From Solirubrobacterales bacterium (GTDB lineage Bacteria; Actinomycetota; Thermoleophilia; Solirubrobacterales; Solirubrobacteraceae), in NCBI GenBank assembly GCA_025964075.1, contig JAOPZQ010000136.1, forward strand, positions 1 through 31,823: 31,823 nt of DNA. Direction: 5' to 3'. Every line of letters begins with the position of its first letter. Position 1 is the first letter of the stretch. Made by a program: the position numbers and the translations under genes. This document shows, piece by piece, positions 514 through 26,660 of the stretch. The notes below the pieces were generated by a model that did no database searches, was not told the origin of the DNA, and saw only the letters and a program-made list of their open reading frames with translations.

Positions 514-519
514 AGCGTA
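514..519 (-). promoter_or_regulatory. putative -10 element (TACGCT) of the lipoprotein gene
   Basis: TAnnnT hexamer exactly 42 bp from the palindrome at 562-576. Confidence 0.5.
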
Positions 520-561
520 AGCGCACGCCCAGCAGGGTTGGAGGGGCGCTTTCGGAGTGCC

Positions 562-576
562 TTGGAAAACACCCAA
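562..576. promoter_or_regulatory. putative PucR/CdaR-type activator site TTGG-N7-CCAA
   Basis: TTGGAAAACACCCAA in a divergent intergenic region; same architecture recurs at 4643, 7042, 22403 and 26598. Confidence 0.6.
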
Positions 577-585
577 GCGGGCCCT

Positions 586-600
586 CCGGGGATTCCACAA
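586..600. promoter_or_regulatory. degenerate second activator site (right arm CCACAA) for the adc-like operon
   Basis: ACAA arm ends at 600, 42 bp before GAGGCT (643-648); left arm degenerate. Confidence 0.35.
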
Positions 601-675
601 ATGCCGTGCGCGGGGCGGTTTGCCGCCGTCGCTCCCGCGCGCGAGGCTCACGGCACTCAACGCGAGGAGAGACAC

Positions 676-1500
676 ATGGACGCCGGTGCCTTCAGGGATT
701 CGTTCTCGCAGCCGATCGGCCCGGGGGCCGGCGCCTACGCGCCGCCTCCGTACCATTACCGCGGCGTGCAGGACATGCTCATCGCCTACGCCGCCGACCC
801 CGAGGGCGTCGCCGCGCTGCTGCCGCCGGGGGTCGAGGCGGCCGACGACGAGCCGGTCTGCATCGCCTGGGGGCGCTGGATCCCGTTCTCCTCCTTCGGC
901 CCCTACCACGAGGCCTACGTCATGGTCCGGGTGAACCTCGACGGCCAGACGTACCTGTACCAGCCGTTCATCTTCACCGACAACGAGATCCCGCTCGTGG
1001 CCGGGCGCGAGATCTGGGGCTTCGCCAAGAAGCTCGCGACGATGCAGCGCAGCTCGGGCGGCGGAACGGAGCCGTTCGGGGAGCAGATGCTCTTCACCGT
1101 CGAGCGCCCTCGGGGCCAGCGGATCATGACGATGTCGATGGCCTGCGACCGCACGGCGGACCCCGTGGAGATGGAGGACCTCCCGGTGCTCTCGACGCGC
1201 ATCATCCCGAGCGCCGAGGCGGGACGGCCGCCGTCGGTCGCCGAGCTCGTTCGCCTCGACGTCGCCGCGTCCCTGCACCACAGCGCGGACGGGACGCCGG
1301 AGCTCTTCACCGGGCGCGCCTCGGTGTCGATGGACGCCCGCTCGCCGGTCGACCCGTGGCACCTGCTGGCCCCCACTCGGATCCTGCAGGGCTGGTACGG
1401 CGTCTTCGACTTCGACCTCTTCCACGGGAAGGTCGTCCACGACTACCTCGCGGACGCCGAGATCTGGAAGGCGCCGGCCACCGTCGCGGGCGTCGCATGA
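676..1500 (+). CDS. acetoacetate decarboxylase-like (ADC superfamily) protein, 274 aa
   Basis: GAGGAG SD before ATG 676; Schiff-base lysine motif GREIWGFAKK; YHEA carries the conserved Glu; PPPYHYR N-terminal motif. Confidence 0.88.
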   Translation: MDAGAFRDSFSQPIGPGAGAYAPPPYHYRGVQDMLIAYAADPEGVAALLPPGVEAADDEPVCIAWGRWIPFSSFGPYHEAYVMVRVNLDGQTYLYQPFIFTDNEIPLVAGREIWGFAKKLATMQRSSGGGTEPFGEQMLFTVERPRGQRIMTMSMACDRTADPVEMEDLPVLSTRIIPSAEAGRPPSVAELVRLDVAASLHHSADGTPELFTGRASVSMDARSPVDPWHLLAPTRILQGWYGVFDFDLFHGKVVHDYLADAEIWKAPATVAGVA

Positions 1501-2513
1501 CTCGCGAGGACTCCAATCAGGCGAGCCCGGATGGCGCGCGGAGTCCGCTCACGAGCGCCGCGTTCCCCCCGGCGCGGCGGGTCGAGACGAACGGCATCGG
1601 CCTCGCCGTCCACGAGCTCGGCGACGGCCCGGCCGTCGTCCTGCTGCACGGGTTCCCCGAGCTCGCCTACTCGTGGCGCCGGCAGATCGGGCCGATCGCG
1701 GAAGCGGGGTTCCGGGTGATCGCCCCCGATCAGCGCGGCTTCGGGGACAGCGACGCGCCCGAGGACTCGCAGACGTACAGCGTGAAGACGCTCGTGTCCG
1801 ACCTCGTCGGCATGCTCGACGCGCTCGACATCGAGCGGGCGGTGTTCGTCGGCCACGACTGGGGCGGGATGCCGGCCTGGTACTCGGCGGTGTACGCGCC
1901 GGAGCGCGTGGCCGGAGCGGGCAGCCTCTGCACGCCGTTCTTCACACCCGGGGAGGTCGACCTCCTCGAGGCCTACGACGAGGTCCGCGGCCCGCAGCAC
2001 TACATGCGGACCTTCCAGGTGCCCGGCGTCGGCGAGGCCATGCTCGAGCGGGACGTGGAGGCCACGTTCCGCGCGCTGATCCGGGGTCGCGGCATGACGC
2101 TCGCGGAGTTCCGCGCCTCGCCTCCCGAGATCCAGGAGATCCGGGCGGGCGTGTTCGTCGGCGATCCCCAGATGTTCGGCGACGAGCTTCTCTCCGACGA
2201 GGAGCTGGCGGTCTACGTCGACACGTACCGCCGCACCGGGTTCACCGGCGGCCTCAACTGGTACCGCGCGCTCCACCAGGACTGGGAGGAGGGGCGGGGC
2301 CAGGAGATGAGGATCGAGACGCCGGCGATCATGATCTGTGCGGAGCACGACTTCTTCCTCCCTCCGGACTTCACCGACGGCATGGAAGAGCTGGTCCCCC
2401 GCGTCGAGAAGCACGTTGTCCCCGACTGCGGTCACTGGATCCAGCAGGAGCGCCCTGACGAGGTCAACGCGCTGCTCGTTCCCTGGCTCACGAAGCACTT
2501 CGCGCACGCCTAG
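1497..2513 (+). CDS. alpha/beta hydrolase, soluble epoxide hydrolase (EphA-like), 338 aa
   Basis: ATGA overlap with the upstream stop; HGFPE oxyanion motif, GHDWGG nucleophile Asp, HY and NWYR tyrosines, GHWIQQE catalytic His. Confidence 0.9.
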   Translation: MTREDSNQASPDGARSPLTSAAFPPARRVETNGIGLAVHELGDGPAVVLLHGFPELAYSWRRQIGPIAEAGFRVIAPDQRGFGDSDAPEDSQTYSVKTLVSDLVGMLDALDIERAVFVGHDWGGMPAWYSAVYAPERVAGAGSLCTPFFTPGEVDLLEAYDEVRGPQHYMRTFQVPGVGEAMLERDVEATFRALIRGRGMTLAEFRASPPEIQEIRAGVFVGDPQMFGDELLSDEELAVYVDTYRRTGFTGGLNWYRALHQDWEEGRGQEMRIETPAIMICAEHDFFLPPDFTDGMEELVPRVEKHVVPDCGHWIQQERPDEVNALLVPWLTKHFAHA

Positions 2514-2536
2514 CGTCGATTGGAGAGAAGACAACG

Positions 2537-3277
2537 ATGACCGCAGTCCTCGTCCACGGAAATCCCGACAGCCACCTGCTCTGGGAGCGCGTGCAGGAAG
2601 AGCTCGACGGCTCGCACCGGGTCGTCGCGCTCGACCTGCCGGGCTTCGCCGACCCGCCGCCGGCCGGCTTCGACGCGAGCAAGGAGTCCTACGTCGACTG
2701 GCTCGTCGCGGAGATCGAGCAGCTCGTCGAGGAGCATGGTCCGGTGGACCTCGTCGGCCACGACTGGGGCTCGCTGCTCGTCCAGCGCGTCGCCTCGACG
2801 CGGCCCGAGCTGCTGCGCTCGCTGACCGCCGGCGGGGCGGTCGTCGACGCCGACTACCCGTGGCACTCCATCGCTCAGGTCTGGCAGACGCCGGGCGAGG
2901 GTGAGCGGTACATGGCGGAGGAGCTGACGCCGGAGGTCTCCGTGCCGTACCTGGTCGAGAACGGCGTGCCCGAGGTGTACGCCGCGCGCAACGCGTGGCT
3001 CGTCCCCGGCAACAAGGACTGCATCCTCGCGCTCTACCGCTCGGCGGTGAGGGTGGGGGAGGAGTGGCAGCCGGACCTCGAGCGCGTCGGCGTGCCGAGC
3101 ATGGTCATCTGGGGCCGCGAGGATCCCTACGTCGAGCTCGAGTGGGGCGAGCGCCTCGCCCGGCGTCTGGGGGCGGAGCTGGTCGTCCTGGACTGCGCCC
3201 ACTGGTGGCCGTACGAGCGCCCCCGCGAGACCGCGGAGGCGCTCGAACGGCTGTGGGCGCGCGTCGCCGTCGGGTGA
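2537..3277 (+). CDS. alpha/beta fold hydrolase (epoxide hydrolase/dehalogenase-like), 246 aa
   Basis: HGNP, GHDWGS (Asp nucleophile), WGREDP, AHW motifs; GGAGAG SD. Confidence 0.88.
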   Translation: MTAVLVHGNPDSHLLWERVQEELDGSHRVVALDLPGFADPPPAGFDASKESYVDWLVAEIEQLVEEHGPVDLVGHDWGSLLVQRVASTRPELLRSLTAGGAVVDADYPWHSIAQVWQTPGEGERYMAEELTPEVSVPYLVENGVPEVYAARNAWLVPGNKDCILALYRSAVRVGEEWQPDLERVGVPSMVIWGREDPYVELEWGERLARRLGAELVVLDCAHWWPYERPRETAEALERLWARVAVG

Positions 3278-3283
3278 CGCTCG

Positions 3284-4558
3284 CTACAGATGCGCGGCGC
3301 CGAGCAGCGCGAGCATCGTGTTCTCGCCGTCGGCGATCTTGTACGACTTCGCGTCGCGCAGCAGCTTCTCCGGGCGGAAGCTCGTGCCGTCGGCGAACGT
3401 CACGCCGTCGCGCCGCGTGCCCCGGCCGCCGCACAGCTGGATCGCGGTGTCGGCGATCTCGAACGCCGCCTCGGTCGTGAACACCTTGGCGGCGCACGAG
3501 TGCTGGATCGAGCCGACCTCGTCCGCGTCCGAACGGCCGTAGTTGTACAGGTACACCGAGCGCGTCATCGCCCGGGCGGCCTCGAGCAGCTGGAACATCC
3601 GGAACAGCCGCAGGCGGACGGCCTGGTGCTCGTAGATGACCTTGCCGCCCTGGACCCGCTCCTTCGTCCACTTCAGGGCGCCCTCGTACGCCGCCCGGCC
3701 GGCGCCGAACGCGAGCAGCCCGGTGGACACGTTGGCCAGCGCGTGCGTGGCGTTGAGGACGTCGACGTAGGTCTCCGGGTCGGCGATCATGTAGTGCTTC
3801 GGCAGCCGCACGCCGTCGAAGATGATCTGGCCCTGCGGCAGCGCGCGGAGCCCGTGCTTGTCGAGCGGCTCGCCGCGCGAGATCCCCGGCAGGTCGAGCG
3901 GCACGATCGCCACGCCGCCCTTGTCGAGGCCCGAGCTGTCGATGTTGCAGAACAGCGTCGCGTGGGTCGCGATCACGCCGCTCGACACCCACCACGACTT
4001 CTGGCCGTCGAGCACCCATTCCTCGCCGTCGAGCCGGGCGCGGACCTGGCCGCCGGGGACCACGAGCTCGGCCGTGTGCGCCGCGAGCTGGTCCGAGCCG
4101 TGCGCCGGCTCGGTGATCGCCCAGCACCCGAACCAGTCCGTGCGCTCGCCGGAGAAGTACGGCTTCGAGAACTCCTCGATGAGCTCCGGGCTCCCGAGGT
4201 TGTAGGCGTACTGGTACGGGAACGGAGCGAGGAAGAGGACCGCGCCGAGGCCGGCGTCGCCCGTGGCGATCTCCTCGAAGATGAGGCATTCCTCGAGGCG
4301 CGAGAGCCCGAGGCCTCCGAGCTCGGTCGGCCCCGTGAGCTTCGTGAAGCCCTCGCGGTGCGCCGTGGCGATGAAGTCGAAGATGGGGGAGCCGGGGGCG
4401 ACCGCCTCCTCGGCGCTCATCTGGTCGAGGGCGTAGCCGGTGGGTCGCACGACGTCCTGGGCGAACTCGCGGGCGCGTCGCTGCCAGGCGCGAGCCTCCT
4501 CGGGGATGTCGACGTTCAACTCGAGGAACCCCGTGGGCTCCGTCTTGGTGACGCTCAA
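3284..4558 (-). CDS. acyl-CoA dehydrogenase family protein, 424 aa
   Basis: TTG start with AGGAG SD; WAITEPAHGSD, LDGQKSWWVS, QLCGGRG and KLLRDAK FAD-binding motifs. Confidence 0.9.
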   Translation of the reverse strand: MSVTKTEPTGFLELNVDIPEEARAWQRRAREFAQDVVRPTGYALDQMSAEEAVAPGSPIFDFIATAHREGFTKLTGPTELGGLGLSRLEECLIFEEIATGDAGLGAVLFLAPFPYQYAYNLGSPELIEEFSKPYFSGERTDWFGCWAITEPAHGSDQLAAHTAELVVPGGQVRARLDGEEWVLDGQKSWWVSSGVIATHATLFCNIDSSGLDKGGVAIVPLDLPGISRGEPLDKHGLRALPQGQIIFDGVRLPKHYMIADPETYVDVLNATHALANVSTGLLAFGAGRAAYEGALKWTKERVQGGKVIYEHQAVRLRLFRMFQLLEAARAMTRSVYLYNYGRSDADEVGSIQHSCAAKVFTTEAAFEIADTAIQLCGGRGTRRDGVTFADGTSFRPEKLLRDAKSYKIADGENTMLALLGAAHL

Positions 4559-4594
4559 CGCACCGCTCCTTCCTGACCGTGTGCCGTGACGACG

Positions 4595-4657
4595 ACGCTA
4601 GTCCGTGCCGTCCGGGGTCGTGAGGGCCGCGGCGGGCCGCCTTTGGAACTCCCACAG
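4595..4657 (-). promoter_or_regulatory. acyl-CoA dehydrogenase promoter: -10 TAGCGT (4595-4600) plus site TTGG-N7-ACAG (4643-4657)
   Basis: 42-bp spacing identical to the other promoters. Confidence 0.55.
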
Positions 4658-4667
4658 CCGGTGGAAG

Positions 4668-5702
4668 TCAGGCGTAGAAGGTCTCCGCGATCCCCTCGAG
4701 GTAGAACGCCAGCTGCTCGGGCGTCAGGCCGCCGATCGGAGGCACGAGGCAGAACGAGTCCGCCACGTCCCAGACCGTCTCCACCTGGCGGCGGCACGCG
4801 TCGGCGTTCCCGAGGACGACGTAGCGCTCCACCATCTCGTCCGTCACCGCCGCCGCGGCGGCGGCCATGTCCCGCCGCTCGACGCCCTGCTGGCAGGCGA
4901 GCGCTTCGGCCCGGAAGCCGTCGGCGGCGAACAGCTCCTCGTACTGCTTCATCCCCGCGTAGAACGCCACGGTCCCGCGGCAGTCCGCGATCGCCTGGCG
5001 CCTGTCGTCGTTCACCGCCACCCACAGCCACGCGTTCCAGTGGATGTCGGAGCGCTCGCGGCCCGCCCGGCCGAGGCCGCGCTCGAGCGCCGCCCGGCCG
5101 GGGCCGGCGATCCAGTGGACGCCGTGGATCGGGTGGTCCATGAAACCGTCGGCGATCTCCCCGGCGAGGCTGGTCAGGCGGGGCTGGTTCGCGGCCAGCC
5201 AGATCGGGATCCGCTCGCGCACCGGCGGTGCGAAGGGCCCCTGGAAGACGCCCCAGTCGTGCCGGTGGAACTCCCCCTCGTAGCGGTCGAGCTCGCCGGT
5301 GTGGCTCTTCGCGACGATGAGCCGGATGAGCTCGATCGTCTCGCGCATGTGCGCCACGGGCTGCCCGTAGTTCGGCTCGCCGAACAGTCCCTCGACCCAC
5401 GCGCGGATCGAGGTGCCGAGCCCGAGGACGAACCGGCCGCCGCAGACCCGGTCGAGGTCCATTGCCGTCATCGCGGTCTCGAACGGGCTCCGCGTGAAGG
5501 CGATCGCGATCCCGCTCGCGAGTTGCGGGCGCTCGGTGACGGCGGCGCAGTATCCGAGCCCCATGAACGGCGAGCTGTAGATCTGGGGGACGAAGATGCC
5601 GGCCAGGCCGGCCGCCTCGACCTGCCGCGCCTGAGCGGTCAGCACCTCGCCCGGGACGAGCGGGGGCAGGAACGCCCACTGCCGGCTGTTGTCGTTCCTC
5701 AC
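4668..5702 (-). CDS. LLM class (luciferase-like) probably F420-dependent oxidoreductase, 344 aa
   Basis: GTG 5702 overlapping the P450 stop, GGGAG SD; IAIAFTRSPFETAMTAMDLDRVCGGRFVLGLG resembles the TIGR03617/MSMEG_2256-type family; cofactor assignment is inferred. Confidence 0.85.
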   Translation of the reverse strand: MRNDNSRQWAFLPPLVPGEVLTAQARQVEAAGLAGIFVPQIYSSPFMGLGYCAAVTERPQLASGIAIAFTRSPFETAMTAMDLDRVCGGRFVLGLGTSIRAWVEGLFGEPNYGQPVAHMRETIELIRLIVAKSHTGELDRYEGEFHRHDWGVFQGPFAPPVRERIPIWLAANQPRLTSLAGEIADGFMDHPIHGVHWIAGPGRAALERGLGRAGRERSDIHWNAWLWVAVNDDRRQAIADCRGTVAFYAGMKQYEELFAADGFRAEALACQQGVERRDMAAAAAAVTDEMVERYVVLGNADACRRQVETVWDVADSFCLVPPIGGLTPEQLAFYLEGIAETFYA

Positions 5703-6994: not shown

Positions 6995-7056
6995 AGCCTA
7001 GGGATGCGTCGCGCGTCGTCAACCACGGGGCCGGCGGCCGCCTGTGGGTTCGCCAA
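6995..7056 (-). promoter_or_regulatory. P450 operon promoter: -10 TAGGCT (6995-7000) plus site CTGT-N7-CCAA (7042-7056)
   Basis: Reverse complement TTGG-CGAACCC-ACAG closely matches the 4643 site; 41-bp spacing. Confidence 0.55.
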
Positions 7057-8886: not shown

Positions 8887-8900
8887 TCCAAAGCGGAATG
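8884..8900. promoter_or_regulatory. LysR recognition box CATTCC-N5-GGAATG (T-N11-A) overlapping the lysR start codon
   Basis: Perfect 6-bp arms fitting the T-N11-A rule. Confidence 0.6.
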
Positions 8901-8962
8901 TTATGCCCCGAGGACGACTGGCGCGAGCCCGACGGAGGATGGACGATCGACATGCAACCGAT

Positions 8963-8976
8963 ACACACACACACAC
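8963..8976. repeat. (AC)7 dinucleotide microsatellite
   Basis: acacacacacacac read directly. Confidence 0.9.
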
Positions 8977-8993
8977 CGAAAGTCAGAGCAGAC

Positions 8994-15117: not shown

Positions 15118-15356
15118 GCAGTGACGATATCGGGCCCCTGCTCGACCCGCAGCGCTGTGCCCGTGCCCAGCGTGCTTCGGACGCCGAGGTCGGCGCACTG
15201 CGCCGCCGCCGCGATGGGCGACGCGGCCAGATCCGAGGGCCAGGTGTCCTTGTCGTCACCCCTCGCCCCGTCGACACTCATGGCATGAAGTCATCCACCG
15301 TCAAGCCATCCACGATCGCCGGTGGGAGCCCCGATTTCCACCGAGCGGAATTGTGA

Positions 15357-15716
15357 GTGTTCCTGTTTCGCTTCCGCCGCAGCGCGTCGGCGCTTCAGCG
15401 GGGCGACGTCATCGTCGATCGCGATCGCGAGCACCTCGTGGTCCTGGACTGCGAGTACCGGGGCGACATCGTCCGCACGCGCCTGCAGGGCCACGGCGAG
15501 ATCGTCTTCGACTGGCCGCGGGACTTCCTCCTGTCCGTGTACCGCGACCGCAACGGCCGTCCGGGCGCGATCGACGAGGATACGCGGCGCCTGCGCTCGT
15601 ACGTGCTGTACGACTGGACGCCCGAGGGACAGGAGGCAGACCTCAGTCCGCGCTCAGGATGTGAACGCTCATCGCCGCGGAGTCGTCAACGAGCCAGCCC
15701 CCGCCGTTCTGGGTGA
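15357..15716 (+). CDS. hypothetical protein, 119 aa (last 74 nt overlap the thiolase antisense)
   Basis: First ~95 codons look globular and coding; the tail is low-complexity. Confidence 0.5.
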   Translation: MFLFRFRRSASALQRGDVIVDRDREHLVVLDCEYRGDIVRTRLQGHGEIVFDWPRDFLLSVYRDRNGRPGAIDEDTRRLRSYVLYDWTPEGQEADLSPRSGCERSSPRSRQRASPRRSG

Positions 15717-16842: not shown

Positions 16843-16848
16843 GGCGCA

Positions 16849-18396
16849 TCAGCTCCTTGTCTTCGACGCCTCGGGCCGGGTCCAGGTCGCGGTGGTGACG
16901 CCCTCGGCCTTCAGCGCGGCGTATTGCACGCGCTGCGTCCCCGTCTTGGGAAGCGCCTCGCGAAACTCGACGTAGGTGGGCACGGCGTAGGCGGCCATGC
17001 GCCCCTCGCAGTAGTCGATGAGCTCCCCCGGTGTGAGCCGCGTGCCGGGACGAGGCACGACGACGAGCTTGACGTCGTCCTCGCCGAGCTCGGACGCGAC
17101 GGCGTGCGCAGCGGACTCGAGCACCCCGGGGTGGGTGTTGACGACGTTCTCGACCTCCCACGCCGAGATGTTCTCCCCGCGCCGGCGCATCGACTCCTTG
17201 AGGCGACCGCAGTAGAAGTAGCGGCCGTCCTCGTCGACGCGCGCGAGGTCGCCGGTGTGGAACCACCCGCCGGCGTACGCCGCTTCCGTCGCCGCCGTGT
17301 TCTTGTGGTAGTGGGTGATGCGCCCCTGGGGGTGGCGCATGACGAGCTCGCCGACCACGCCCCGTCCGACCTCGTTGCTCGCAGCATCGATCACGGCGAA
17401 CTCCGTCGGGCCGATCGGGCGTCCCATCGCTCCGGGCGTGCCGTCGTCGTTGACGAGGAAGCCCGGGTGATCGACCATCCCGAAGAACTCGACGATCCGC
17501 ACCCCGAACCGCCGCTCGAACTCGACCCACGCCCATTCCGGGCACGCGGCGGAGAGCACGGACCGCACCGGGTTCTCGGCGTCGTCGGGGCGCTCCGGCT
17601 GCTTGAGGAGGATCGGCAGGAGCGCGCCCAGCGCGTTGAACTCGACCGCCTCGTAGCGGCGGACGTCCGCCCAGAAGCGCGAGGCACTGAAGCGCTCCGC
17701 GAGCGCCAGCGTCCAGTCGTTGAACACGGCGCCCATCGCCGAGAGGATCAGCGCGTTGCCGTGGAAGAGCGGGAGCGCCGTGTACACGGTCTCCCCGGGC
17801 TCGACGCCGAGCCGAGCCCACAGGCGGTGCATCGGCGTCAGGTCGTAGGCCGTCGCCACGACGCCCTTCGGGGGGCCCGTGGTGCCCGAGGTGTAGAGGA
17901 TGCCGAGCCCGCTCGCGCCGCCGCCCTCGATCTCCGGAACCGCGTCGGACGCGTCGAGCAGGCGCTCGAGCCCGATCGCTCCCGGCACCCGCGTGGCGTC
18001 GCCGCGGACGACCACGCGGGGCGGGTCGACCAGCTGCGCGTGGATGTCGGCGTAGGCGGCCGTGAGCGCGCCGTCGACGATCAGCGCGCGCGCGTCCGAG
18101 TCGTTCACGATGTGGGCGAGCGTGCCTCCGCGCTGCGCCGTGTTGATCGGAACGGCCGCCGCGCCGATCGCCACGATGCCCATGTACGAGGAGAGGAACT
18201 CCGGGGAGTTCGGCAGGAGCAGACCGACGCGATCGCCCGCGCGCACGCCGAGCTCGGCGAGGCCGTGCGCGGTCCGGAACGACGCCTCGGCGAACTCCCG
18301 CCAGGTGATCTCGCGATCGCCGAAGCGCAGGTACGCCGCATCGGGATGGGAGTCCCGGCGCTCGACCAGGAGATCGACGAGGGGGGGTCTCGTCAT
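16849..18396 (-). CDS. acyl-CoA synthetase / CoA ligase (CaiC-like), 515 aa
   Basis: YTSGTTGPPKG P-loop, LPLFH, WFHTGDL, RRRGENIS, LPKT. Confidence 0.92.
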   Translation of the reverse strand: MTRPPLVDLLVERRDSHPDAAYLRFGDREITWREFAEASFRTAHGLAELGVRAGDRVGLLLPNSPEFLSSYMGIVAIGAAAVPINTAQRGGTLAHIVNDSDARALIVDGALTAAYADIHAQLVDPPRVVVRGDATRVPGAIGLERLLDASDAVPEIEGGGASGLGILYTSGTTGPPKGVVATAYDLTPMHRLWARLGVEPGETVYTALPLFHGNALILSAMGAVFNDWTLALAERFSASRFWADVRRYEAVEFNALGALLPILLKQPERPDDAENPVRSVLSAACPEWAWVEFERRFGVRIVEFFGMVDHPGFLVNDDGTPGAMGRPIGPTEFAVIDAASNEVGRGVVGELVMRHPQGRITHYHKNTAATEAAYAGGWFHTGDLARVDEDGRYFYCGRLKESMRRRGENISAWEVENVVNTHPGVLESAAHAVASELGEDDVKLVVVPRPGTRLTPGELIDYCEGRMAAYAVPTYVEFREALPKTGTQRVQYAALKAEGVTTATWTRPEASKTRS

Positions 18397-18403
18397 CGGC
18401 TCC

Positions 18404-18712
18404 TCACCACGTGATCGGCGGCTGGATCGGGATGCCGTTCTGGACGAAGAAAGACCGCAGGATGTTGGCCTGCCTCCGCCCGCCCGAGGCCTCGAAGGCG
18501 TCGATCCGGCTGACCCACTCGCGCCGCGCCTTCATCCGCAGCTTGAGCTGGCCGTCGTCGAAGCGGCGCAGGCACTGGTCGACCATCTCGTCCGGCGTCG
18601 CGCCGTGGGTGACGCAGAACGCCTCGAGCACCGCGATGCGCTCGTCGTCCTCCGCGAAGCCGGCGGCCTCCATCCAGGCCTGCACGCTGCCGTAGCCGGT
18701 GAGGGCCATCAT
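18404..18712 (-). CDS. conserved-looking helical hypothetical protein, 102 aa
   Basis: ATGA/TGATG overlap with the nitroreductase stop; MMALTGYGSVQAWM...LRSFFVQNGIPIQPPITW; GC3 bias; fills the gap to the CoA ligase. Confidence 0.8.
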   Translation of the reverse strand: MMALTGYGSVQAWMEAAGFAEDDERIAVLEAFCVTHGATPDEMVDQCLRRFDDGQLKLRMKARREWVSRIDAFEASGGRRQANILRSFFVQNGIPIQPPITW

Positions 18713-19530
18713 TCCTCGGGCAGGCCGTAGGCGCGCGCGATCGAACGGATCTCGGCCTGCCGCCACGGGTACGGGGCGAGGGGCTGCAGCAGGCGGTGCT
18801 TCTCGAGGGCCGCGGTCACCTCGGGCGTCGCCTCGAACGGCGTCGTCGCGTCGTTCCAGAAGTAGTCCTCGGAGATCGGCGCGCGCGGACGCTGGCCGCC
18901 CGCCTGCATGTCCTCGGCGGGGTAGCCGACGAGGACCATCCACATCGGCTGCCAGTTCTCGGGAACGCTCAGCGACTCCTTGACGACGTCGGAGTTCCAC
19001 GACTTGCAGCACGCGCCCAGTCCGAGCGCGGTGACGGAGAGGAGGATGTGCGCGAGCGCCTGCGCGGCCTCGACCGCCGCCATCCACCCGGCCGCCGCGG
19101 GGTCCGCGAGCAGCGGCTCGAGGATGGTCTTGCCGACGACCTCGTCGGCGAAGCGGTGGCTCCACCCCAGAGCGGGCGCGAAGGCTCCCCGGTCGTACAG
19201 GTCCTTCAGACGCTCGGGACCGCCGGCGGGCGCCTGCGGATCGGAGTACGTGAACAGGTAGAGCGGCGCCATGTCGAGGTCGGCGGTGTTCGTGGGCGTC
19301 TTCAGCGCCTCGCGAGCCTCGGGGTCGAGCGTGTCCCGCTCGCAGGCGATGACCTTCAGGTAGGAGGCGTTCACCGACCGCGACGACCTCTGCGCGGCCT
19401 CGAACATGACCTCGACCTTCCAGCGCTCGACGGGACGGAACGGCTGGAAGTAGCGGATCGAGCGTCGGGTCCCGATCGCGTCGAAGAGGGGCATCGCCCC
19501 CGCCCGATCCATCTCGTGCTCGTCGTACAT
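18709..19530 (-). CDS. nitroreductase superfamily flavoprotein with C-terminal extension, 273 aa
   Basis: RRSIR FMN-binding motif, ALGLGAC, VLVGYP...RPR; GAGGAG SD. Confidence 0.85.
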   Translation of the reverse strand: MYDEHEMDRAGAMPLFDAIGTRRSIRYFQPFRPVERWKVEVMFEAAQRSSRSVNASYLKVIACERDTLDPEAREALKTPTNTADLDMAPLYLFTYSDPQAPAGGPERLKDLYDRGAFAPALGWSHRFADEVVGKTILEPLLADPAAAGWMAAVEAAQALAHILLSVTALGLGACCKSWNSDVVKESLSVPENWQPMWMVLVGYPAEDMQAGGQRPRAPISEDYFWNDATTPFEATPEVTAALEKHRLLQPLAPYPWRQAEIRSIARAYGLPEE

Positions 19531-19544
19531 GTGTCTCGCCCTCT

Positions 19545-19678
19545 CCTCGCGGGTAGTCGGCCGACCTTAGCGGCGCCCGTATCCATTGTCCATCCAGACC
19601 GGGTGGTCGGTCGGCTCTTACTGAACCCTCTCTTGCAGTTATCCTAAACGGGGTTTACGCTCCCGACCGAGTAGTCGC
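19545..19678. promoter_or_regulatory. divergent promoter region with CCGAC-N6-GTCGG-like operators at 19595-19610 and 19663-19678 and a half-site at 19550-19560
   Basis: CAGAC-CGGGTG-GTCGG and CCGAC-CGAGTA-GTCGC flank -10-like GACAAT (minus, 19585-19590) and TACGCT (plus, 19656-19661). Confidence 0.55.
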
Positions 19679-19697
19679 ACGAGGGAAGGAGAGAGCG

Positions 19698-20489
19698 ATG
19701 GGATTTGTGCGTACACCCGAGGAGATCGGGCGGATCCAGGAGGCCCTGAGCAAGCCGCGCTTCGTCGGCGCCGAGATGCTCACGGTCGACTTCCTGACGA
19801 CGCTCGGGTTCGTCGAGGCGGTCCTGCCCCCCGGCCTCGAGCCGGCCGCCCAACCTCGCATCACGGCGATGGTCGGCCGCTGGCAGAGCAACTGCGTCGC
19901 CGACTTCGACGGCGGCGCCATCTACGTCGCCGCCCGGCACGGCGACCTCGACGGCGACTACGTCCTCGCGATGTTCATGGACGACGACGAGCCGATCATC
20001 TACGGCCGCGACCTGTTCGGCGAGCCGAAGAAGCAGGCGGTGTCGCACCTCCATCGCCGCGGCGACCACATGACCGGGTACATCGAGCGGCGCGGCACGC
20101 GGCTCGTGCAGCTCGACGCGGAGCTCACCGAGGACACCGGGCCGGTCCGGGTCACGGGGCACAACTTCAACTACAAGGCGACGCCGTCCGCCGACGGACT
20201 CGGCCTCGAGCACGACGCGGTGCTCACGGTCGCGACGTTCGAAAACGACTTCTGGACATCGCGTGGCGGGACGGGCGAGGTGCGGCTGACGAGCACCGTG
20301 CACGACCCGCTCGGCGACATCCCGATCGAGTCGGTGCTCGGCGCCGCCTACGTCGAGGGCGACATGATCGCGAGCTGCCGCTCGGCGGCCCGTATCCCCG
20401 CCGAGGACTTCCTTCCGTACGCCCTCGGCCGCCTCGACGACTGGAGCGCGCTGAACACCGAGTCACCGCCCGCCCTCGTGGCGAGCTGA
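19698..20489 (+). CDS. acetoacetate decarboxylase-like (ADC superfamily) protein 2, 263 aa
   Basis: GRDLFGEPKK lysine motif; GGAAGGAG SD. Confidence 0.85.
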   Translation: MGFVRTPEEIGRIQEALSKPRFVGAEMLTVDFLTTLGFVEAVLPPGLEPAAQPRITAMVGRWQSNCVADFDGGAIYVAARHGDLDGDYVLAMFMDDDEPIIYGRDLFGEPKKQAVSHLHRRGDHMTGYIERRGTRLVQLDAELTEDTGPVRVTGHNFNYKATPSADGLGLEHDAVLTVATFENDFWTSRGGTGEVRLTSTVHDPLGDIPIESVLGAAYVEGDMIASCRSAARIPAEDFLPYALGRLDDWSALNTESPPALVAS

Positions 20490-20506: not shown

Positions 20507-22396
20507 ATGGACCGGCATCGCACCGAGTCCCGCTGTCCCGCGATCGACGCGTTCGCCAAGATCGCCGGCGCGCTCGGCGGGCTGACCGAGATGGACGATC
20601 TCCTCCATCTCCTCGCCCGCACGCTCTCCGACCTCGTCGGTGTCGAGCGCTACAGCCTGCACCTGCGCGACGACGAGGCCGGGCTCTTCCACGGCCGCGT
20701 CGGCCACACGGGCACCGAGAGCATCGACAGCCTCGTCAAGCGGGCCTCGGCGGGGATGCAGGCCGACGGCATGAGCCGCGAGCTGCTCGAGAGCAGGCGC
20801 CCGGTGATCATCGTCAACGCGCGAGACGATCCGCGCATCGTCCGCTCGACGGTGCGCTTCTGGCGGATCCGCTCGTTGATGGCCGTCCCGCTGCTCCTGG
20901 GCGACGAGGTCCTCGGGATCGCCTATCTCGACGACGTCGACCGGGCGCACGAGTTCTCGGATTCCGATCAGGAGCTCGCGCTGGCGTTCGGCGAGCTCGC
21001 CGGCATCGCGATCGATCGGATGAAGACGACGCTGCAGCTGCGGTCCGAGCTCGAGGCGATGAGCCGGCAGAACGCCGCGTTCCGCCGCGCGGCGGCGCTG
21101 GACGACCGGCTGAGTGCGCTCGTCGTCGAGGGTCGGAGCCTCGAGGACCTCATCGCGCTCCTGGCCGAGGCGCTGGGCAAGCCGTGCGCGCTCTACGACT
21201 CCGCTGACGAGCGCGTCGCGGTCGCGTGTCCCCCCGGATGTGCCGAGGACGTCGCTCCGCGCCTGCTCGAGGCCCCCTACCGGCACATGCCCGAGGTGCA
21301 GCTCGCGCTGGGCTCGTTGGCGGAGAGTCGTGGCGGCGTCGTCGCGCCGGTGCCGACGGCCGGTGTCCTCCACCGTCACTACATCGCTCCGGTCACGGCC
21401 GGCGGGGAGGCCTGGGGCACCCTGATCCTCATGGAGCACAAGCGCCGGTTCACGGGCGCGGACATCCTCACCGCCCGGAGGGCGGCGACGCTCATCGCCC
21501 TCCACATGAGCGCCGAGCGCAAGGTGCGCGCCGGCGAGGCGACCGCGCGGGCGTCGCTGACCGCGGAGCTCGTCGCCGGCGACCTCGACGAGGTCGAGGC
21601 GCGTCGTCGCGCCGAGCACCTCGGGCTCAACCCGACCGGCGACCACGTCGTGTGCCTGATCGCGGCGCGCGGCGGGGGGCGGGACGCCGTCCCGGACGTC
21701 GGCTGGGTCGGCGCAGCCCTCGACGACATCGAGGCGGTCGGGCGCGTGCTCACGGCCCGGCTCCGCGACGGCGTCGTCGCCGTCATCGAGTGCCCGACGG
21801 GCTCGACGCGGCGCTGCTACGCGAGCGCGCTCAGGCAGCCGCTGGCCGAGGTGTGCGAGCAACTGACCGCCGGCGCCGAGCTGGTCGCCGGCATCTCCGC
21901 CGTGTACACGGGTCCCGAGGCGCTGTCCGAGGCCTACGAGCAGGCCCGGCAGGTGGTCCAGTGCATCGAGCGGTTCTCGCCGCCCGGCTCGGGCACCGTG
22001 TTCACCGCCGAGGAGCTCGGCGCCGGACGGCTGTTCCTCGCCATGTCGGACGAGCACGAGGCGTCGCGCTTCGCCCTCCAGACGCTCGGAGAGCTCGTCG
22101 ACGATCCCGCTCGCTCGGACCTGCTGGCCACGCTCTGCCAGTTCTTCGCCCACCAGGCGAGCATCCGCCGATGCGCCGAGGACCTCGGCGTGCACGAGAA
22201 CACGATCCGCTACCGGCTCGCCAAGGCCGAGGAGCTCGCGGAGCTGCCGTTCACCCGCGATCCCGATGCCCAGACGCGAGCCCAGATCTCGCTCGCGATC
22301 CTTCAGCTGCAAGGAAGGATCCCCGCCGAGGTCGCCCGGCGCGTGGAGTCGAGCGCGGTCCGCTCGCTGGAGCCGGTCACGCACGGCAGCGCCTGA
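20507..22396 (+). CDS. GAF-domain PucR/CdaR-family transcriptional activator, 629 aa
   Basis: N-terminal GAF (RSLMAVPLLLGDEVLGIAYLD), second sensor domain, C-terminal HTH IRRCAEDLGVHENTIRYRL. Confidence 0.9.
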   Translation: MDRHRTESRCPAIDAFAKIAGALGGLTEMDDLLHLLARTLSDLVGVERYSLHLRDDEAGLFHGRVGHTGTESIDSLVKRASAGMQADGMSRELLESRRPVIIVNARDDPRIVRSTVRFWRIRSLMAVPLLLGDEVLGIAYLDDVDRAHEFSDSDQELALAFGELAGIAIDRMKTTLQLRSELEAMSRQNAAFRRAAALDDRLSALVVEGRSLEDLIALLAEALGKPCALYDSADERVAVACPPGCAEDVAPRLLEAPYRHMPEVQLALGSLAESRGGVVAPVPTAGVLHRHYIAPVTAGGEAWGTLILMEHKRRFTGADILTARRAATLIALHMSAERKVRAGEATARASLTAELVAGDLDEVEARRRAEHLGLNPTGDHVVCLIAARGGGRDAVPDVGWVGAALDDIEAVGRVLTARLRDGVVAVIECPTGSTRRCYASALRQPLAEVCEQLTAGAELVAGISAVYTGPEALSEAYEQARQVVQCIERFSPPGSGTVFTAEELGAGRLFLAMSDEHEASRFALQTLGELVDDPARSDLLATLCQFFAHQASIRRCAEDLGVHENTIRYRLAKAEELAELPFTRDPDAQTRAQISLAILQLQGRIPAEVARRVESSAVRSLEPVTHGSA

Positions 22397-22402: not shown

Positions 22403-22466
22403 TTGTAGAACCGACAACGCCCCGCGCTCGCCGCCGGGTCCCGGGCGGGCGGCCCGCGGCGAGAAT
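22403..22466 (+). promoter_or_regulatory. Zn-dehydrogenase promoter: TTGT-N7-ACAA (22403-22417) plus -10-like GAGAAT (22461-22466)
   Basis: Perfect 4-bp arms, 43-bp spacing, directly after the cdaR-like gene. Confidence 0.6.
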
Positions 22467-22473: not shown

Positions 22474-23550
22474 GTGCCCCCCGCTTCCCCAGCCCGCGGC
22501 AGCATCCGCGCCGTCGAATGGAGGGGCCCCGAGGCCCTGGCGCTGGTCGACCGCGAGGCGCCCGAGGCGACGCCGGGACAGGCGGTCGTGGAGGTGGCCC
22601 ATTGCGGCATCTGCGGCTCGGATCTCCATAGCTACCGGCACGGTCTGGCGGCGACAGCCGGCCAGGTGCTCGGCCACGAGTTCTCCGGCACGGTGCTCGA
22701 GGCGCCGGGAGTGGAGGGTCTGGCGCCCGGCGATCGCGTCACCGTCCGGCCGCTCATCCCCTGCGGCCGGTGCCGACGCTGCCGGGCCGGCGAGCCCAAC
22801 CTGTGCGAGGTCGGCGCTGTCGACAACATCGGCTACGGATCGCCGGGCGCCTTCGCCGAGCGCGTGCTCGTGCCGCGGGCGGCGCTCGGGGAGACGGTGT
22901 TCCGGTTGCCCCCCGAGGTCGGCGACCGGGCGGGCGCCCTCGTCGAGCCGCTCGCGGTCGCGATGCACGCGGCGCGGCTCGGCGCCGTGCTCCCGGAGGA
23001 CGTCGTCCTCGTGCTGGGCGCGGGAATGATCGGCCTCGGGGTGACGCGGCTCCTGCGCCTCGCGGGGGTCGGCCGGCTGGTCGTCGCCGACCTCTCCCCG
23101 CTGCGCCGCGCGCGGGCGCTGGCCCTCGGCGCCGACCGGACGATCGACCCGCGAGCGGAGGACGTCACGAAGGCGATGCGCGAGATCACCGGGCCCGGGG
23201 GCTTCGGCCTCGGCGCCGCCGTCGACGTCGTGTTCGAGTGCGCGGGCGTCGAGGAGACGCTGGCCCACGCCCTCAAGTCCGCACGCCAGGGCGGCACGCT
23301 CGTCCTGACCGCGGTCTACGCGGGCGCGGTCAGGATCCACCCCGATCGGATCGTCGAGAAGGAGCTGACCGTGCGCGGCGCGTTCGCCTACCGCGACGAG
23401 TTCCCCGCCGTGATCGATCTCCTCGCGTCCGGCGCGGTCGACCCCGAGGAGTTCGTCTCGCACTCGTTCGGCCTCGACGACGTCGAGCTCGCGTTCCGGA
23501 CGCAGATGGACACCGCCCGCTCGATCAAGGTGCTCGTCACTCCGGGGTGA
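22474..23550 (+). CDS. zinc-dependent alcohol dehydrogenase (MDR; butanediol/threonine/sorbitol dehydrogenase-like), about 358 aa
   Basis: CGICGSDLH, GHE, CGRCRRC...C structural Zn, GAGMIG; GTG 22474 chosen because it sits 7 nt after the -10 (alternative ATG 22465). Confidence 0.88.
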   Translation: MPPASPARGSIRAVEWRGPEALALVDREAPEATPGQAVVEVAHCGICGSDLHSYRHGLAATAGQVLGHEFSGTVLEAPGVEGLAPGDRVTVRPLIPCGRCRRCRAGEPNLCEVGAVDNIGYGSPGAFAERVLVPRAALGETVFRLPPEVGDRAGALVEPLAVAMHAARLGAVLPEDVVLVLGAGMIGLGVTRLLRLAGVGRLVVADLSPLRRARALALGADRTIDPRAEDVTKAMREITGPGGFGLGAAVDVVFECAGVEETLAHALKSARQGGTLVLTAVYAGAVRIHPDRIVEKELTVRGAFAYRDEFPAVIDLLASGAVDPEEFVSHSFGLDDVELAFRTQMDTARSIKVLVTPG

Positions 23551-24763
23551 GCAGCTCGAGGACGGCCGCGGCGTAGATCTCCGCCGCCGCGGCGACCTCG
23601 GCGACGGCCACGTGCTCGTCCACCGCGTGCGCGAGCTCGAAGTCGCCCGGCCCGAACGTGATCGCCGCCGGGTTCCCGAAGCCGTGCTCGTCGGTGCGCA
23701 TGAGCTCGGCGGCGTCGACCCAGCCGCCGTTGAACTGGCGGATCTCGGCCGTCCCGCCGGTCACGGCGCCGACCGCGCTCTGGAGCGCCTTGATGCCCCG
23801 GTGCGCGGGATCGGCCTCGCCCGGGCGCAGCCACAGGCGCCCGGCACCCATCGGCAGGACCTTGGACTCGAAGCGAACCTCGCCGTCCTCGCGCTCGAGC
23901 TGGCGCAGGAACGCGTCGATCGCCTCGGCGACGCCGGTCAGCGTCGTGCCCGGGGGCGAGAGCACGGAGAGCACGGCGTCGCACCGCGCCGGGATCGCCC
24001 AGCCGCCGCCCGGCAGGGTGCGGATCGCGTTCGTGGTCACGCGCGGCTCGAACCAGCGGGAAGTGCCGCCCGGCAGCGCCAGGAGCCCCTGCTCGACCGC
24101 GAGGACGAGCCGCGCCATCTTCTCGATCGCGTTGACGCCGCGCTCGGGCTCGGTCGGGTGGGCGGTGCGTCCGATCGCGGTGATCTTCCACGTCGAGATG
24201 CCCGGGTACGCCATCTCGATCCGCTGGTTGCTCGTCGCCTCGGCGGAGAACACGGTGTCGACGCGCTCGATCACGCCGAGGTCCTCCATCAGGGTCGCGC
24301 CGCGGAAGCCGTCCTCTCCGTCGCAGTCCGACATGAAGTAGAGCGGGCCGTCGAGCGCGGCGCCGCTTGCCACCACGGCTTCGAGTGCCGCGAGCATCGC
24401 GACATGAGCGCCCTTGCTGTCGACCGCCCCGCGGCCGTAGACGACGCCGTCCTCGATCTGACCGCCCCACGGGTCGCGGCTCCAGTCCGCGGGGACCGCG
24501 CCGACCGTGTCGTAGTGGGCGTCGAAGAGGATCCCGGCTTGCTCGCCGCGGCCTTCGAGGCGACCGAGGACGAGCGGCGCGCGCCGCCCCTCCACGGCGT
24601 AGTGCTCCACGGTCATGCCGAGCTCGCGCAGGCGGGCGCTGACCCACAGGTGGGCGGTGGTGTCCTCGCCGACGACGCTCCGGATCGAGATGAGCTCGCG
24701 CAGGAGCTTCGCGCAGCGCTCGGGGTCGATGCGGATCCGTTCGGTCTGCTGTTCGGTGCTCAT
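23537..24763 (-). CDS. M20/M25/M40 family metallo-hydrolase (ArgE/DapE-like), 408 aa
   Basis: AHYDTV, GRGAVDSKG, AEAT, GRTAH dimerisation entry, AHAVDEH; EE motif altered to GE. Confidence 0.88.
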   Translation of the reverse strand: MSTEQQTERIRIDPERCAKLLRELISIRSVVGEDTTAHLWVSARLRELGMTVEHYAVEGRRAPLVLGRLEGRGEQAGILFDAHYDTVGAVPADWSRDPWGGQIEDGVVYGRGAVDSKGAHVAMLAALEAVVASGAALDGPLYFMSDCDGEDGFRGATLMEDLGVIERVDTVFSAEATSNQRIEMAYPGISTWKITAIGRTAHPTEPERGVNAIEKMARLVLAVEQGLLALPGGTSRWFEPRVTTNAIRTLPGGGWAIPARCDAVLSVLSPPGTTLTGVAEAIDAFLRQLEREDGEVRFESKVLPMGAGRLWLRPGEADPAHRGIKALQSAVGAVTGGTAEIRQFNGGWVDAAELMRTDEHGFGNPAAITFGPGDFELAHAVDEHVAVAEVAAAAEIYAAAVLELLTPE

Positions 24764-24787
24764 GGCCGGCCTTTCGTCGGGGGAGAG

Positions 24788-25516
24788 TCAGCGGGAGTCG
24801 TCGAGGAGCGCCGGGTGGCCGCGCAGGCTGAGGCCGCCGTCGACGGTCAGGCACGTCCCGGTGATCCAGCGTGCGGCGGGGGAGGCGAGGAACGCGACGG
24901 CGGCCGCGATGTCCGCGCCCTCGGCGATGCGGCCGAGCGGCGTGCCGTCGACGAAGGACTCGGACACGCCCGGTTGCGCGAGCATCGGCTCCATCAGCGG
25001 CGTGCGCACGACGCCCGGCGCGACGGCGTTGCAGCGGATGCCGCGCGAGCCGAGCTCGAGGGCGGCGGAGCGGACGAGCGCCTCGAGGCCCGCCTTCGCC
25101 GCGCAGTAGTGCGTCAGGCCGGCGACGGGGGAGCGCGAGTCGATCGACGAGAGCAGGGTCACGGACCCCTCGCCCGCCAGCGCGCGAGCGCAGGACTGAA
25201 CGACGTTGAAGGCGCCGGTGAGGTTGACGGCGAGGACGAGCTCCCACTCGCGCGCCGTGATGTCGGCGAGGGGCGTCACGCGGGCGGTCCCCGCGGCGTA
25301 GACCACGGTCCACGGCGAGCCGCAATGCGTGGCGAAGTCCTCGACCGCGGCGCGCACGGCCTCGGCGTCGCGCACGTCGAGGGGCAGGGAGGCGACGTCG
25401 GACGGTGGGCGCAGGTCGGCGACGACGACGCGCCAACCCCGGGCGGCCAGCTCGTCGGCGGTCGCGCGTCCGATGCCGGAGGCGCCGCCGACCACGAGCG
25501 CCCCGGCGGCCGGCAT
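24788..25516 (-). CDS. short-chain dehydrogenase/reductase (SDR), about 242 aa
   Basis: GGASGIG, S...YCAAK, NAVAPG, DGG; TGATG coupling to the E2 stop (alternative GTG 25528). Confidence 0.9.
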   Translation of the reverse strand: MPAAGALVVGGASGIGRATADELAARGWRVVVADLRPPSDVASLPLDVRDAEAVRAAVEDFATHCGSPWTVVYAAGTARVTPLADITAREWELVLAVNLTGAFNVVQSCARALAGEGSVTLLSSIDSRSPVAGLTHYCAAKAGLEALVRSAALELGSRGIRCNAVAPGVVRTPLMEPMLAQPGVSESFVDGTPLGRIAEGADIAAAVAFLASPAARWITGTCLTVDGGLSLRGHPALLDDSR

Positions 25517-26517
25517 CACGTCCGCCACGACATGCCTCCCTCGAGCAGCTCGGCGAGCTCGGTGAGCGCCCGCCCGCCGACCGCCCCGTCGATGGCGCGG
25601 TGGTCGAGCGTCATCGTGACCGTGAGCATCGGGACCGCGACGCTCCCCTGCTCGCGCGGGACGAGGCGCTCGACCGTCCGCCCGACCGCGACGATCGCGC
25701 TCTCGCCCGGGTTGACCATCGCGGTGAACCGATCGACGCCGAAGCTCCCGAGATTCGAGAGGCTGATGGTCCCGTCCGCCATGTCCTCGAGCCCGAGGTC
25801 ACCCGCGCGCGCGCTCGCGACCAGGCGCGCGCGCTCGCGCGCGACGGCCGCGAGCGTGAGCTCGTGCGCGTCGCGGATCACCGGGACGACGAGGCCGCGG
25901 TCGGTCGCCACCGCGAGCCCGACGTTCACCCCGGCCCGGCGCGCGAGCCGCGGCGGATCGTCGCCGTCGCCGGGGACGAACGACGTGGCGAGCGCGGGAT
26001 GGCGCACCACCGTCTCCGCGAGCGCCTGGACGAGCATGTCGCCCAAGCCGGGGGCGCCGTCGAGTCGCGCGAGCTCGGCCTTGGCGGCGAGCAGCCACGT
26101 CGCATCGACGTCACGCGCGAGCGCGTACTGCGGGATCGCCTGGCTGATGGTCATGCGCCGCGCGATCGCTCGGCGCAGCGGCGAGAGCTCCTCGAGCGCC
26201 GCCGGCTCGGGCGCGCGCGCGGCTCCGACTCGCGCGCCGGGTGACTTCGGATCGGACTCGCCCTCGAGCGGCTCGTCGAGCGAGTCCGCGAGGAGGACGA
26301 GCGTGGCGCCGACCTCGACCGTCTCGCCGATCGCAACCTCGATGCGGCGCACGAAGCCGTCGCGGGGTGCGACCACATCGGTGTCCGCCTTGTCCGTCGA
26401 GAGCTCGACGACAGGGTCGTCCTTGACGACCTGCACGCCGACCTCGACCGGCAGCGCGACCACCACACCTTCCGTCACCTCCAGGCCGAGCTGCGGCATG
26501 ACGACCGCGGTGACCAA
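25516..26517 (-). CDS. dihydrolipoamide acyltransferase E2 (lipoyl plus catalytic domain; no recognisable subunit-binding domain), 333 aa
   Basis: TTG start with AGGAGG SD; MPQLG...STDKA lipoyl-Lys; SLSNLG and DHRAIDG catalytic motifs. Confidence 0.9.
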   Translation of the reverse strand: MVTAVVMPQLGLEVTEGVVVALPVEVGVQVVKDDPVVELSTDKADTDVVAPRDGFVRRIEVAIGETVEVGATLVLLADSLDEPLEGESDPKSPGARVGAARAPEPAALEELSPLRRAIARRMTISQAIPQYALARDVDATWLLAAKAELARLDGAPGLGDMLVQALAETVVRHPALATSFVPGDGDDPPRLARRAGVNVGLAVATDRGLVVPVIRDAHELTLAAVARERARLVASARAGDLGLEDMADGTISLSNLGSFGVDRFTAMVNPGESAIVAVGRTVERLVPREQGSVAVPMLTVTMTLDHRAIDGAVGGRALTELAELLEGGMSWRT

Positions 26518-26549
26518 TCCGGAGACCTCCTGTTTCGTCGGTTCGCGTG

Positions 26550-26660
26550 ACGCTATGAGCCGGCTTCGCGGTCACCTATCTCGATGTCGGTCGCCCCTTG
26601 TTGCTTCTCCAACTCACCCGCTCCGGCGCACCGAGGGGCCGGATCGCGCGGCGCGAGAAT
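26550..26660. promoter_or_regulatory. bidirectional promoter: central TTGT-N7-CCAA (26598-26612) with -10 TAGCGT (minus, 26550-26555) and GAGAAT (plus, 26655-26660)
   Basis: Both hexamers are exactly 42 bp from the palindrome. Confidence 0.65.

Follow-up and report, generated by a model that had tools for sequence, protein, structure and literature searches.

Genes and sites at the locus

The window analysed here is a 31.8-kb contig (72% GC) from the soil metagenome-assembled genome of a Solirubrobacterales bacterium, a draft of 3.98 Mb in 691 contigs that is ~76% complete. Six intergenic copies of a palindrome lie along it, each 41–43 bp from a -10-like hexamer, and between them they face seven transcription units. 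The window also encodes a PucR-type protein with tandem GAF domains (GAF-PucR, 20507-22396). The six palindromes are probably binding sites for a dimer of this protein, which would activate the seven units in a class I-like manner. Genes were called by third-position GC content (GC3) and annotated with Pfam and NCBIfam; the site scores quoted below come from a matrix built from 21 external sites alone, without any window sequence.

At the left end, the minus-strand gene at 2-469 encodes a periplasmic binding protein of an ABC transporter (Pfam Peripla_BP_6), and the plus-strand operon at 676-3277 encodes an ADC-like protein and two alpha/beta hydrolases (Pfam). Two palindromes 24 bp apart occupy the region between them. 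The first, TTGGAAAACACCCAA at 562-576 (score 16.9, third in the genome), is 42 bp from the -10 hexamer TACGCT of the leftward promoter P1 (514-519, minus strand, read as the reverse complement), which serves the binding protein gene. The second, at 586-600 (reverse complement TTGTGGAATCCCCGG, score 12.4), is 42 bp from the -10-like hexamer GAGGCT of the rightward promoter P2 (643-648, plus strand), which serves the operon. Further along, TTGGAACTCCCACAG at 4643-4657 (score 15.9) is 42 bp from the P3 hexamer TAGCGT (4595-4600, minus strand, reverse complement) ahead of an acyl-CoA dehydrogenase gene (3284-4558, minus strand; Pfam). The site at 7042-7056 (reverse complement TTGGCGAACCCACAG), with a score of 10.7 the weakest of the six, is 41 bp from the P4 hexamer TAGGCT (6995-7000, minus strand, reverse complement), and P4 serves the genes for a P450 (5699-6976) and a luciferase-like monooxygenase (4668-5702), both on the minus strand and both assigned by Pfam.

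The two remaining sites lie to the right of the regulator gene. TTGTAGAACCGACAA at 22403-22417 (score 15.3) stands right behind the regulator stop codon, 43 bp from the P5 hexamer GAGAAT (22461-22466, plus strand), and its sequence is unchanged in L021, a relative with 95% identity. The palindrome at 26598-26612 (reverse complement TTGGAGAAGCAACAA, score 15.8) is single and lies 42 bp from the -10 boxes on either side: TAGCGT of P6 (26550-26555, minus strand, reverse complement), which serves an E2-SDR-M20 hydrolase operon running from 26517 down to 23537 on the minus strand, and GAGAAT of P7 (26655-26660, plus strand), which serves the genes for E1-alpha and E1-beta (26668-28630, plus strand). 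For E1-alpha a leaderless start is proposed, with ATG 26668 lying 7 nt downstream of the hexamer.

Because the P5 hexamer (22461-22466) runs into the ATG at 22465, the Zn-alcohol dehydrogenase gene (22474-23550, plus strand) probably starts instead at 22474, with an in-frame GTG 7 nt past the hexamer, and its transcript is likely to be leaderless. Whichever start is used, the predicted protein is ~11 residues longer at its N-terminus than homologues that begin MKAAVF.

The six sites and seven hexamers had been proposed in an initial annotation of this DNA, and all were found at the coordinates it gave. Every site is intergenic by the GC3-based gene call, and the gaps between motif and hexamer are, as claimed, 42, 42, 42, 41, 43, 42 and 42 bp. 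The proposed pattern, TTGK-N7-MCAA, required revision: the palindrome it describes is real, but the sites at 4643 and 7042 end in ACAG/CTGT and fall outside it, and YTGKRR-N3-YYMCAR describes the set better. The site list was likewise correct in its six entries and overlooked a fourth strict match, TTGGAGAGAAGACAA at 2520-2534, which falls within a gap of 23 bp and is without a hexamer 41–43 bp away. As it overlies a ribosome-binding site and lacks the promoter geometry, this match is probably due to chance.

Besides GAF-PucR, the window encodes two TetR proteins, one LysR protein and one LuxR-type response regulator, with TetR and LysR genes present in its left part. A short (CA)n run, ACACACACACAC, was noted upstream of the LysR gene in the gap at 8887-8993. 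A minus-strand group at 15643-19530 encodes a thiolase, an acyl-CoA ligase, a small protein and a nitroreductase, and a second ADC-like gene (19707-20489) lies directly ahead of the regulator gene.

Enrichment of the motif in the window

The strict pattern TTGK-N7-MCAA occurs four times in the window against 0.11 expected, and the relaxed pattern YTGK-N7-MCAR eight times against 1.9; none of 100 shuffles reached either count. A control pattern with an 8-bp spacer was not enriched in the window (3 matches versus 2.1 expected). Genome-wide, the strict pattern has 16 matches in 3.98 Mb, 4 of which fall within the window, a stretch that makes up 0.8% of the genome (P ~7e-6). Shuffles and genome-wide count thus agree that the motif is concentrated in the window rather than equally frequent at random positions.

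In a scan of the entire draft genome with the external matrix, the sites at 562, 4643, 26598 and 22403 were all within the top eight matches. Combining a matrix match with a [TG]ANNNT hexamer at 41–43 bp placed the top five hits of the genome in the window and recovered all seven promoters; the 586/P2 pair failed the automatic gene-start filter only because the caller had set the start of the ADC-like gene at 601 instead of 676. Matrix matches on contigs C279, C186, C268, C372, C195 and others had no hexamer at 41–43 bp. The confinement of promoter-linked sites to the window indicates an element local to this island and not a global signal.

One match elsewhere in the genome, C19:1668, does combine matrix score and hexamer; it lies in an unrelated sugar- or inositol-type locus and was set aside as probably a different operator. 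There, a perfect 16-bp palindrome, TTTGGAACGCTCCAAA (C19:1667-1682, locus L033), stands between a GFO/IDH/MocA oxidoreductase gene and a xylose-isomerase-like TIM-barrel gene, which is followed by a gene for a MalK-type ABC ATPase. This palindrome probably serves an unrelated sugar or inositol regulator as its operator.

Homologous loci and a refined motif

Neither among 40 taxonomic relatives nor in a phylum-wide sample of 400 genomes did a search find an orthologue of the regulator, and the comparison accordingly draws on metagenomic contigs alone. A protein search returned 77 homologues of the regulator, one at 95% identity and most others at 45–52%. Nearly all derive from soil metagenomes, and a few bear the names of Solirubrobacterales or Actinobacteria metagenome-assembled genomes. 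Twelve contigs were fetched, covering 10 kb either side of the regulator gene; with L021 as the 95%-identity relative and L023 a duplicate of L022, ten distinct loci were left, which are related to one another and whose regulators are ~50% identical to that of the window.

These ten loci share a cluster in which an ABC transporter, an ADC-like gene, usually a GntR gene, E1-beta and E1-alpha are divergent from E2, SDR, M20 and the regulator gene. The cluster continues with a thiolase-like gene, an acyl-CoA ligase gene, SDR and/or Zn-alcohol dehydrogenase genes, a histidine phosphatase gene, a hydrolase gene and a three-gene module of PEP-utilising type.

All 4-mer dyads with spacers of 0–12 bp were counted blind in the 102 intergenic regions of the window and the ten loci. 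TGTG-N5-CACA ranked first (10 observed versus 0.65 expected), followed by TTGT-N7-ACAA, CTTG-N9-CAAG, TTGG-N7-CCAA and GTGG-N3-CCAC, all nested parts of one palindrome, cTTGTGG-N3-CCACAAg. Iterative refinement led to the 15-bp motif YTGKRR-N3-YYMCAR, with the consensus TTGTGG-N3-CCACAA. In the external loci, sites precede the thiolase-like gene, which directly follows the regulator gene, and also the ligase and ADC-like genes and the PEP-utilising module. Variants of 16 bp were seen in L022 and L030. At L030:11880-11955 and 15276-15353, the left arm of degenerate sites overlaps the upstream stop codon, and a 41-bp gap to CATCGT or GAGCAT is kept together with leaderless starts.

Conserved spacing and leaderless starts

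Spacing was assessed at 21 non-redundant external promoters from 9 loci, with orientation set by the downstream gene only. A TANNNT hexamer lay at a 41–43-bp gap in 9 of the 21 (~0.15 expected; P 1e-14) and [TG]ANNNT in 12 (~1 expected; P 3e-11), P-values that overstate independence because the loci are related; NANNNT was present at this gap in 15 of the 21. The sequences between site and hexamer cannot be aligned, and the retention of distance while the spacer diverges indicates that the distance itself is under selection. No -35 consensus was seen at the motif-bearing promoters, and, apart from the 562/586 pair, no second site of the kind that forms the double repeat of GabR was found in the spacers.

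In many cases a start codon lies 6–9 nt past the hexamer. In five orthologous thiolase-like genes the conserved N-terminus V-x-G-V-H-L-L-G-V-G begins at the GTG that follows it, and in the window the E1-alpha (ATG 26668) and alcohol dehydrogenase (GTG 22474) genes also start just past their hexamers. Such leaderless starts support the hexamers as real -10 boxes and predict where transcription begins, which puts the site centres at about -60 to -64. The proposal that the site is centred near -62, the class I position, is thus upheld for these predicted starts: the centres fall near -61.5 or whole helical turns away from it. An example of the latter is the perfect palindrome TTGTGGATGCCACAA, found at L026:17612-17626, L028:17102-17116 and L031:16903-16917, which is 31 bp from GAGGCT and a leaderless ATG. 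It precedes the gene for a conserved 204-aa protein and the three-gene module of PEP-utilising/PPDK_N type, a module that is absent from the window. A gap of 31 bp is one helical turn closer and would keep the site on the same face of the helix.

The candidate regulator

The GAF-PucR gene (20507-22396, plus strand) encodes 629 aa with tandem GAF domains, a GGDEF-like domain and a PucR-type helix-turn-helix (HTH) domain. Its assignment to the PucR-type family is solid: Pfam detects GGDEF_2 (PF17853) at residues 358-485 and HTH_30 (PF13556) at residues 539-597, each with E 6e-15, and a profile search of the PDB matched the C-terminal domain of MabR (9f80, E 6e-8) and 3onq. Only the first of the two GAF domains is clearly detected by Pfam. 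The AlphaFold model (mean pLDDT 87.6) has two GAF-type alpha/beta domains, linked by long helices of ~55 and ~40 residues, followed by the GGDEF-like domain (an alpha/beta domain at 362-490) and the HTH. Its fold resembles those of a phytochrome-linked diguanylate cyclase and of the tandem-GAF phosphodiesterases PDE2/5/6, a resemblance which suggests that the protein may form a parallel dimer that signals along a helical spine.

Apart from this gene, no regulator gene is present both in the window and in each of the ten homologous loci. The motif co-occurs with it in 11 loci, and promoter-linked sites are specific to the island. These observations support the earlier proposal that the protein regulates the seven promoters, as a reading of sequence and gene context. 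In addition, the centres of the half-sites are ~10 bp apart, which fits the MabR dimer, in which the recognition helices are ~34 Å apart (PMC11617747).

The gap at 19531-19706 separates the nitroreductase-ligase-thiolase operon from the ADC-regulator operon and contains two promoters of canonical appearance, a leftward TGGACA-N17-TAAGGT and a rightward TTGCAG-N17-TACGCT, each followed by a repeat containing GTAGTCG. With no palindrome in this gap, expression of the regulator appears independent of its own sites, and its gene is probably under the control of another protein, perhaps a repressor. Searching for the GTAGTCG-type repeat of this region returned only GC-rich noise.

Proposed mechanism

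In the mechanism that we propose, the GAF sensor would take up a small-molecule inducer, and the dimer bound at a palindrome would recruit or stabilise RNA polymerase in the class I manner. It would sit on one face of the helix, centred at about -62, at weak promoters without a recognisable -35 element. Seven units would be switched on in this way, namely those for the binding protein, the ADC-like protein with two hydrolases, the acyl-CoA dehydrogenase, the P450 with the luciferase-like monooxygenase, the Zn-alcohol dehydrogenase, E2-SDR-M20 and E1-alpha/beta. The palindrome at 26598-26612 would serve two divergent promoters at 42/42 bp, while those at 562 and 586, 24 bp apart, would each serve one promoter of a divergent pair. 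Several of the seven promoters are predicted to yield leaderless mRNAs. As to function, the target set (the E1/E2 components of an acyloin or 2-oxoacid dehydrogenase, an SDR, the Zn-alcohol dehydrogenase, the P450 and luciferase-like monooxygenase, two hydrolases, the acyl-CoA dehydrogenase, ADC-like proteins and a transporter) leads us to speculate that the enzymes serve the catabolism of an acyloin, a ketone or a related hydrophobic compound.

Several observations weigh against this reading. The matrix score of the site at 7042-7056 is weak (10.7), and three hexamers of the window start with G instead of T. L030 has the regulator and degenerate sites only, some of them 16 bp long, and the relatedness of the external loci tempers the spacing statistics. 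The regulator promoter region (19531-19706) is without a palindrome, so that co-regulation with the targets is not evident. The locus was found in soil DNA runs only, and three metatranscriptomes of the same study hold none of it. Finally, with the genome 76% complete, another regulator or further sites could be in the missing part.

Alternative explanations

The most plausible alternative, though an unlikely one, is that the palindrome is a real operator bound by some other factor: a GntR/FCD-type protein, one of the TetR or LysR proteins that the window encodes, or the product of a gene in the unassembled quarter of the genome. A GntR/FCD-type gene is present in the cluster of 8 of the 10 homologous loci, and the window encodes the two TetR proteins, the LysR protein and the LuxR-type response regulator. 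However, the TetR, LysR and LuxR genes are missing from the homologous loci, which still bear the motif, and a global factor is unlikely given that promoter-linked sites occur in the window only. The window lacks a GntR gene, and the GntR paralogues of the draft genome are distant (≤35% identity over most of the query; E 8e-17).

Moreover, GntR seems to have operators of its own in the E1/E2 gap of the homologous loci, where boxes of the type GATTGTCnGAC lie beside canonical TTGACA-N17-TACTGT promoters. Such boxes occur in most E1/E2 gaps of the GntR-encoding loci, several of which also have a canonical TTGACA-N17/18-TACTGT promoter. At L022:4406-4545, L024:6621-6746, L025:6712-6858 and L030:6676-6862, the E1/E2 gap has a canonical TTGACA-N17/18-TACTGT (or TACCGT) promoter, which in three of these four loci, all GntR-encoding, is flanked by GATTGTCnGAC boxes. 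The boxes are probably GntR/FCD operators. The E1/E2 gap of the window (26518-26667) contains neither these boxes nor a canonical promoter and has the palindrome instead. This looks like a rewiring of the E1/E2 genes in this lineage, in which strong canonical promoters under GntR repression gave way to promoters that depend on an activator.

Two known operator types were compared with the palindrome itself and rejected. A GntR/FadR-type operator, with its GT-N(1-3)-AC core, was discarded on the grounds that the window has no GntR gene and the loci have the separate GATTGTCnGAC boxes. A 16-bp CRP/GlxR site (TGTGA-N6-TCACA) would have TGTG and CACA 8 bp apart and occur genome-wide, whereas here they are 5 bp apart and the sites are confined to the window.

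Slightly less likely again is that GAF-PucR binds these sites as a repressor or dual regulator, for instance by forming a loop or masking an UP-like element. B. subtilis PucR is known both to activate and to repress (PMC7652997). Yet the edge of the site lies ~20 bp upstream of the -35 position, where it would not occlude RNA polymerase, and no second site for looping was found in the spacer or flanks, apart from 562/586. The lack of a -35 consensus and the several weak -10 boxes are typical of activator dependence, and the conserved distance, with its variant one turn closer, fits activation from one face of the helix.

That the pattern is an artefact of chance or composition, put together by selective reading in a 72% GC genome whose intergenic DNA is AT-richer, is very improbable: the sites and hexamers were originally picked by eye, three of the hexamers read GANNNT and the 2520 match looks fortuitous, but shuffles and the genome count reject chance, and motif and spacing were recovered independently from external loci.

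Comparison with known systems

The proposed activation of the seven units by a GAF-PucR dimer would resemble class I activation by CRP. At the class I CRP promoter lac P1 of E. coli, the site is centred at -61.5. Like the promoters described here, class I CRP promoters have a single palindromic dimer site near -62 that keeps to one helix face, occur in variants shifted by roughly a helical turn, and include divergent pairs that such a site can serve. They differ in that CRP belongs to an unrelated protein family and acts globally rather than locally, and in that its site is TGTGA-N6-TCACA and not TGTG-N5-CACA.

Acetoin dehydrogenase (E1/E2) operons are controlled by AcoR-type proteins, sigma-54 activators with a GAF-type sensor. 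The island described here likewise combines a regulator that has a GAF sensor with a cluster for E1-alpha, E1-beta and E2 of an acyloin or 2-oxoacid dehydrogenase and further dehydrogenases. Unlike AcoR, however, GAF-PucR has no AAA+ sigma-54 interaction domain, and the promoters have sigma-70-type -10 boxes and no -24/-12 elements.

Most characterised PucR-type regulators activate transcription and bind inverted repeats that lie ahead of promoters; the repeats are 17 bp for PutR, 24 bp for AdeR and 21 bp for GabR, the PucR box is non-palindromic, and for CdaR and SrmR no site has been determined (PMC7652997, PMC13599513). The initial annotation had ascribed to PucR/CdaR-family activators TTGT...ACAA arms with a spacer of ~9 bp, which these published sites do not confirm. 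GAF-PucR shares with PutR/PrcR and AdeR of B. subtilis and GabR of C. glutamicum a C-terminal PucR HTH and, GabR excepted, a GGDEF-like domain. Those proteins are activators, and their palindrome, like those of the window, lies upstream of a catabolic promoter adjoining the regulator gene. The differences are the tandem GAF sensor and the reach of the system, with seven promoters over 26 kb here and one there. The site differs too: GabR has two 21-bp repeats just upstream of -35, and here a lone palindrome of 15 bp stops ~20 bp short of the -35 position on its upstream side. The PutR box may be similar to TTGTGG..CCACAA.

Two further regulators are alike in domains. EtnR1, which belongs to the ethylene/epoxide genes of Mycolicibacterium chubuense NBB4, also joins a GAF domain to a CdaR/PucR HTH in an actinobacterial catabolic island that it controls (PMC11197473), a likeness at the level of domains. 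It differs in requiring the MEDS partner EtnR2, whereas a MEDS gene is absent from the present island, and its site was not identified in that study (PMC11197473). MabR (Rv2242) of M. tuberculosis shares the C-terminal GGDEF-like domain and HTH, and its dimer geometry fits half-sites one turn apart (PMC11617747), but it has a globin-like N-terminus and regulates the fasII operon.

Significance

The mechanism itself is of a known kind, a PucR-type activator acting class I-like from an upstream inverted repeat. What is new is a motif for a subfamily without a characterised member, the conserved 41–43-bp geometry, a regulon of seven promoters over 26 kb and the apparent replacement of the E1/E2 promoters. 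More tentatively, this may be the first DNA motif and promoter geometry for the tandem-GAF PucR subfamily of soil Actinomycetota, in which such a regulator would do the AcoR-type job on E1/E2 genes of acyloin or ketone metabolism by class I activation of sigma-70-type promoters, after a rewiring of E1/E2 from GntR repression.

For an uncultured soil actinobacterium, the analysis gives a concrete, testable regulon, made up of a motif, seven promoters and a candidate sensor-activator, and it supplies the GAF-PucR subfamily with a candidate DNA site. With its conserved 42-bp geometry and leaderless targets, the island offers a compact setting in which to study class I-like activation in Actinomycetota, and it could become the basis of a biosensor once the inducer is identified. 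Comparison of the clusters, finally, points to the same enzymes under switched control, from GntR repression to activation of the PucR type.

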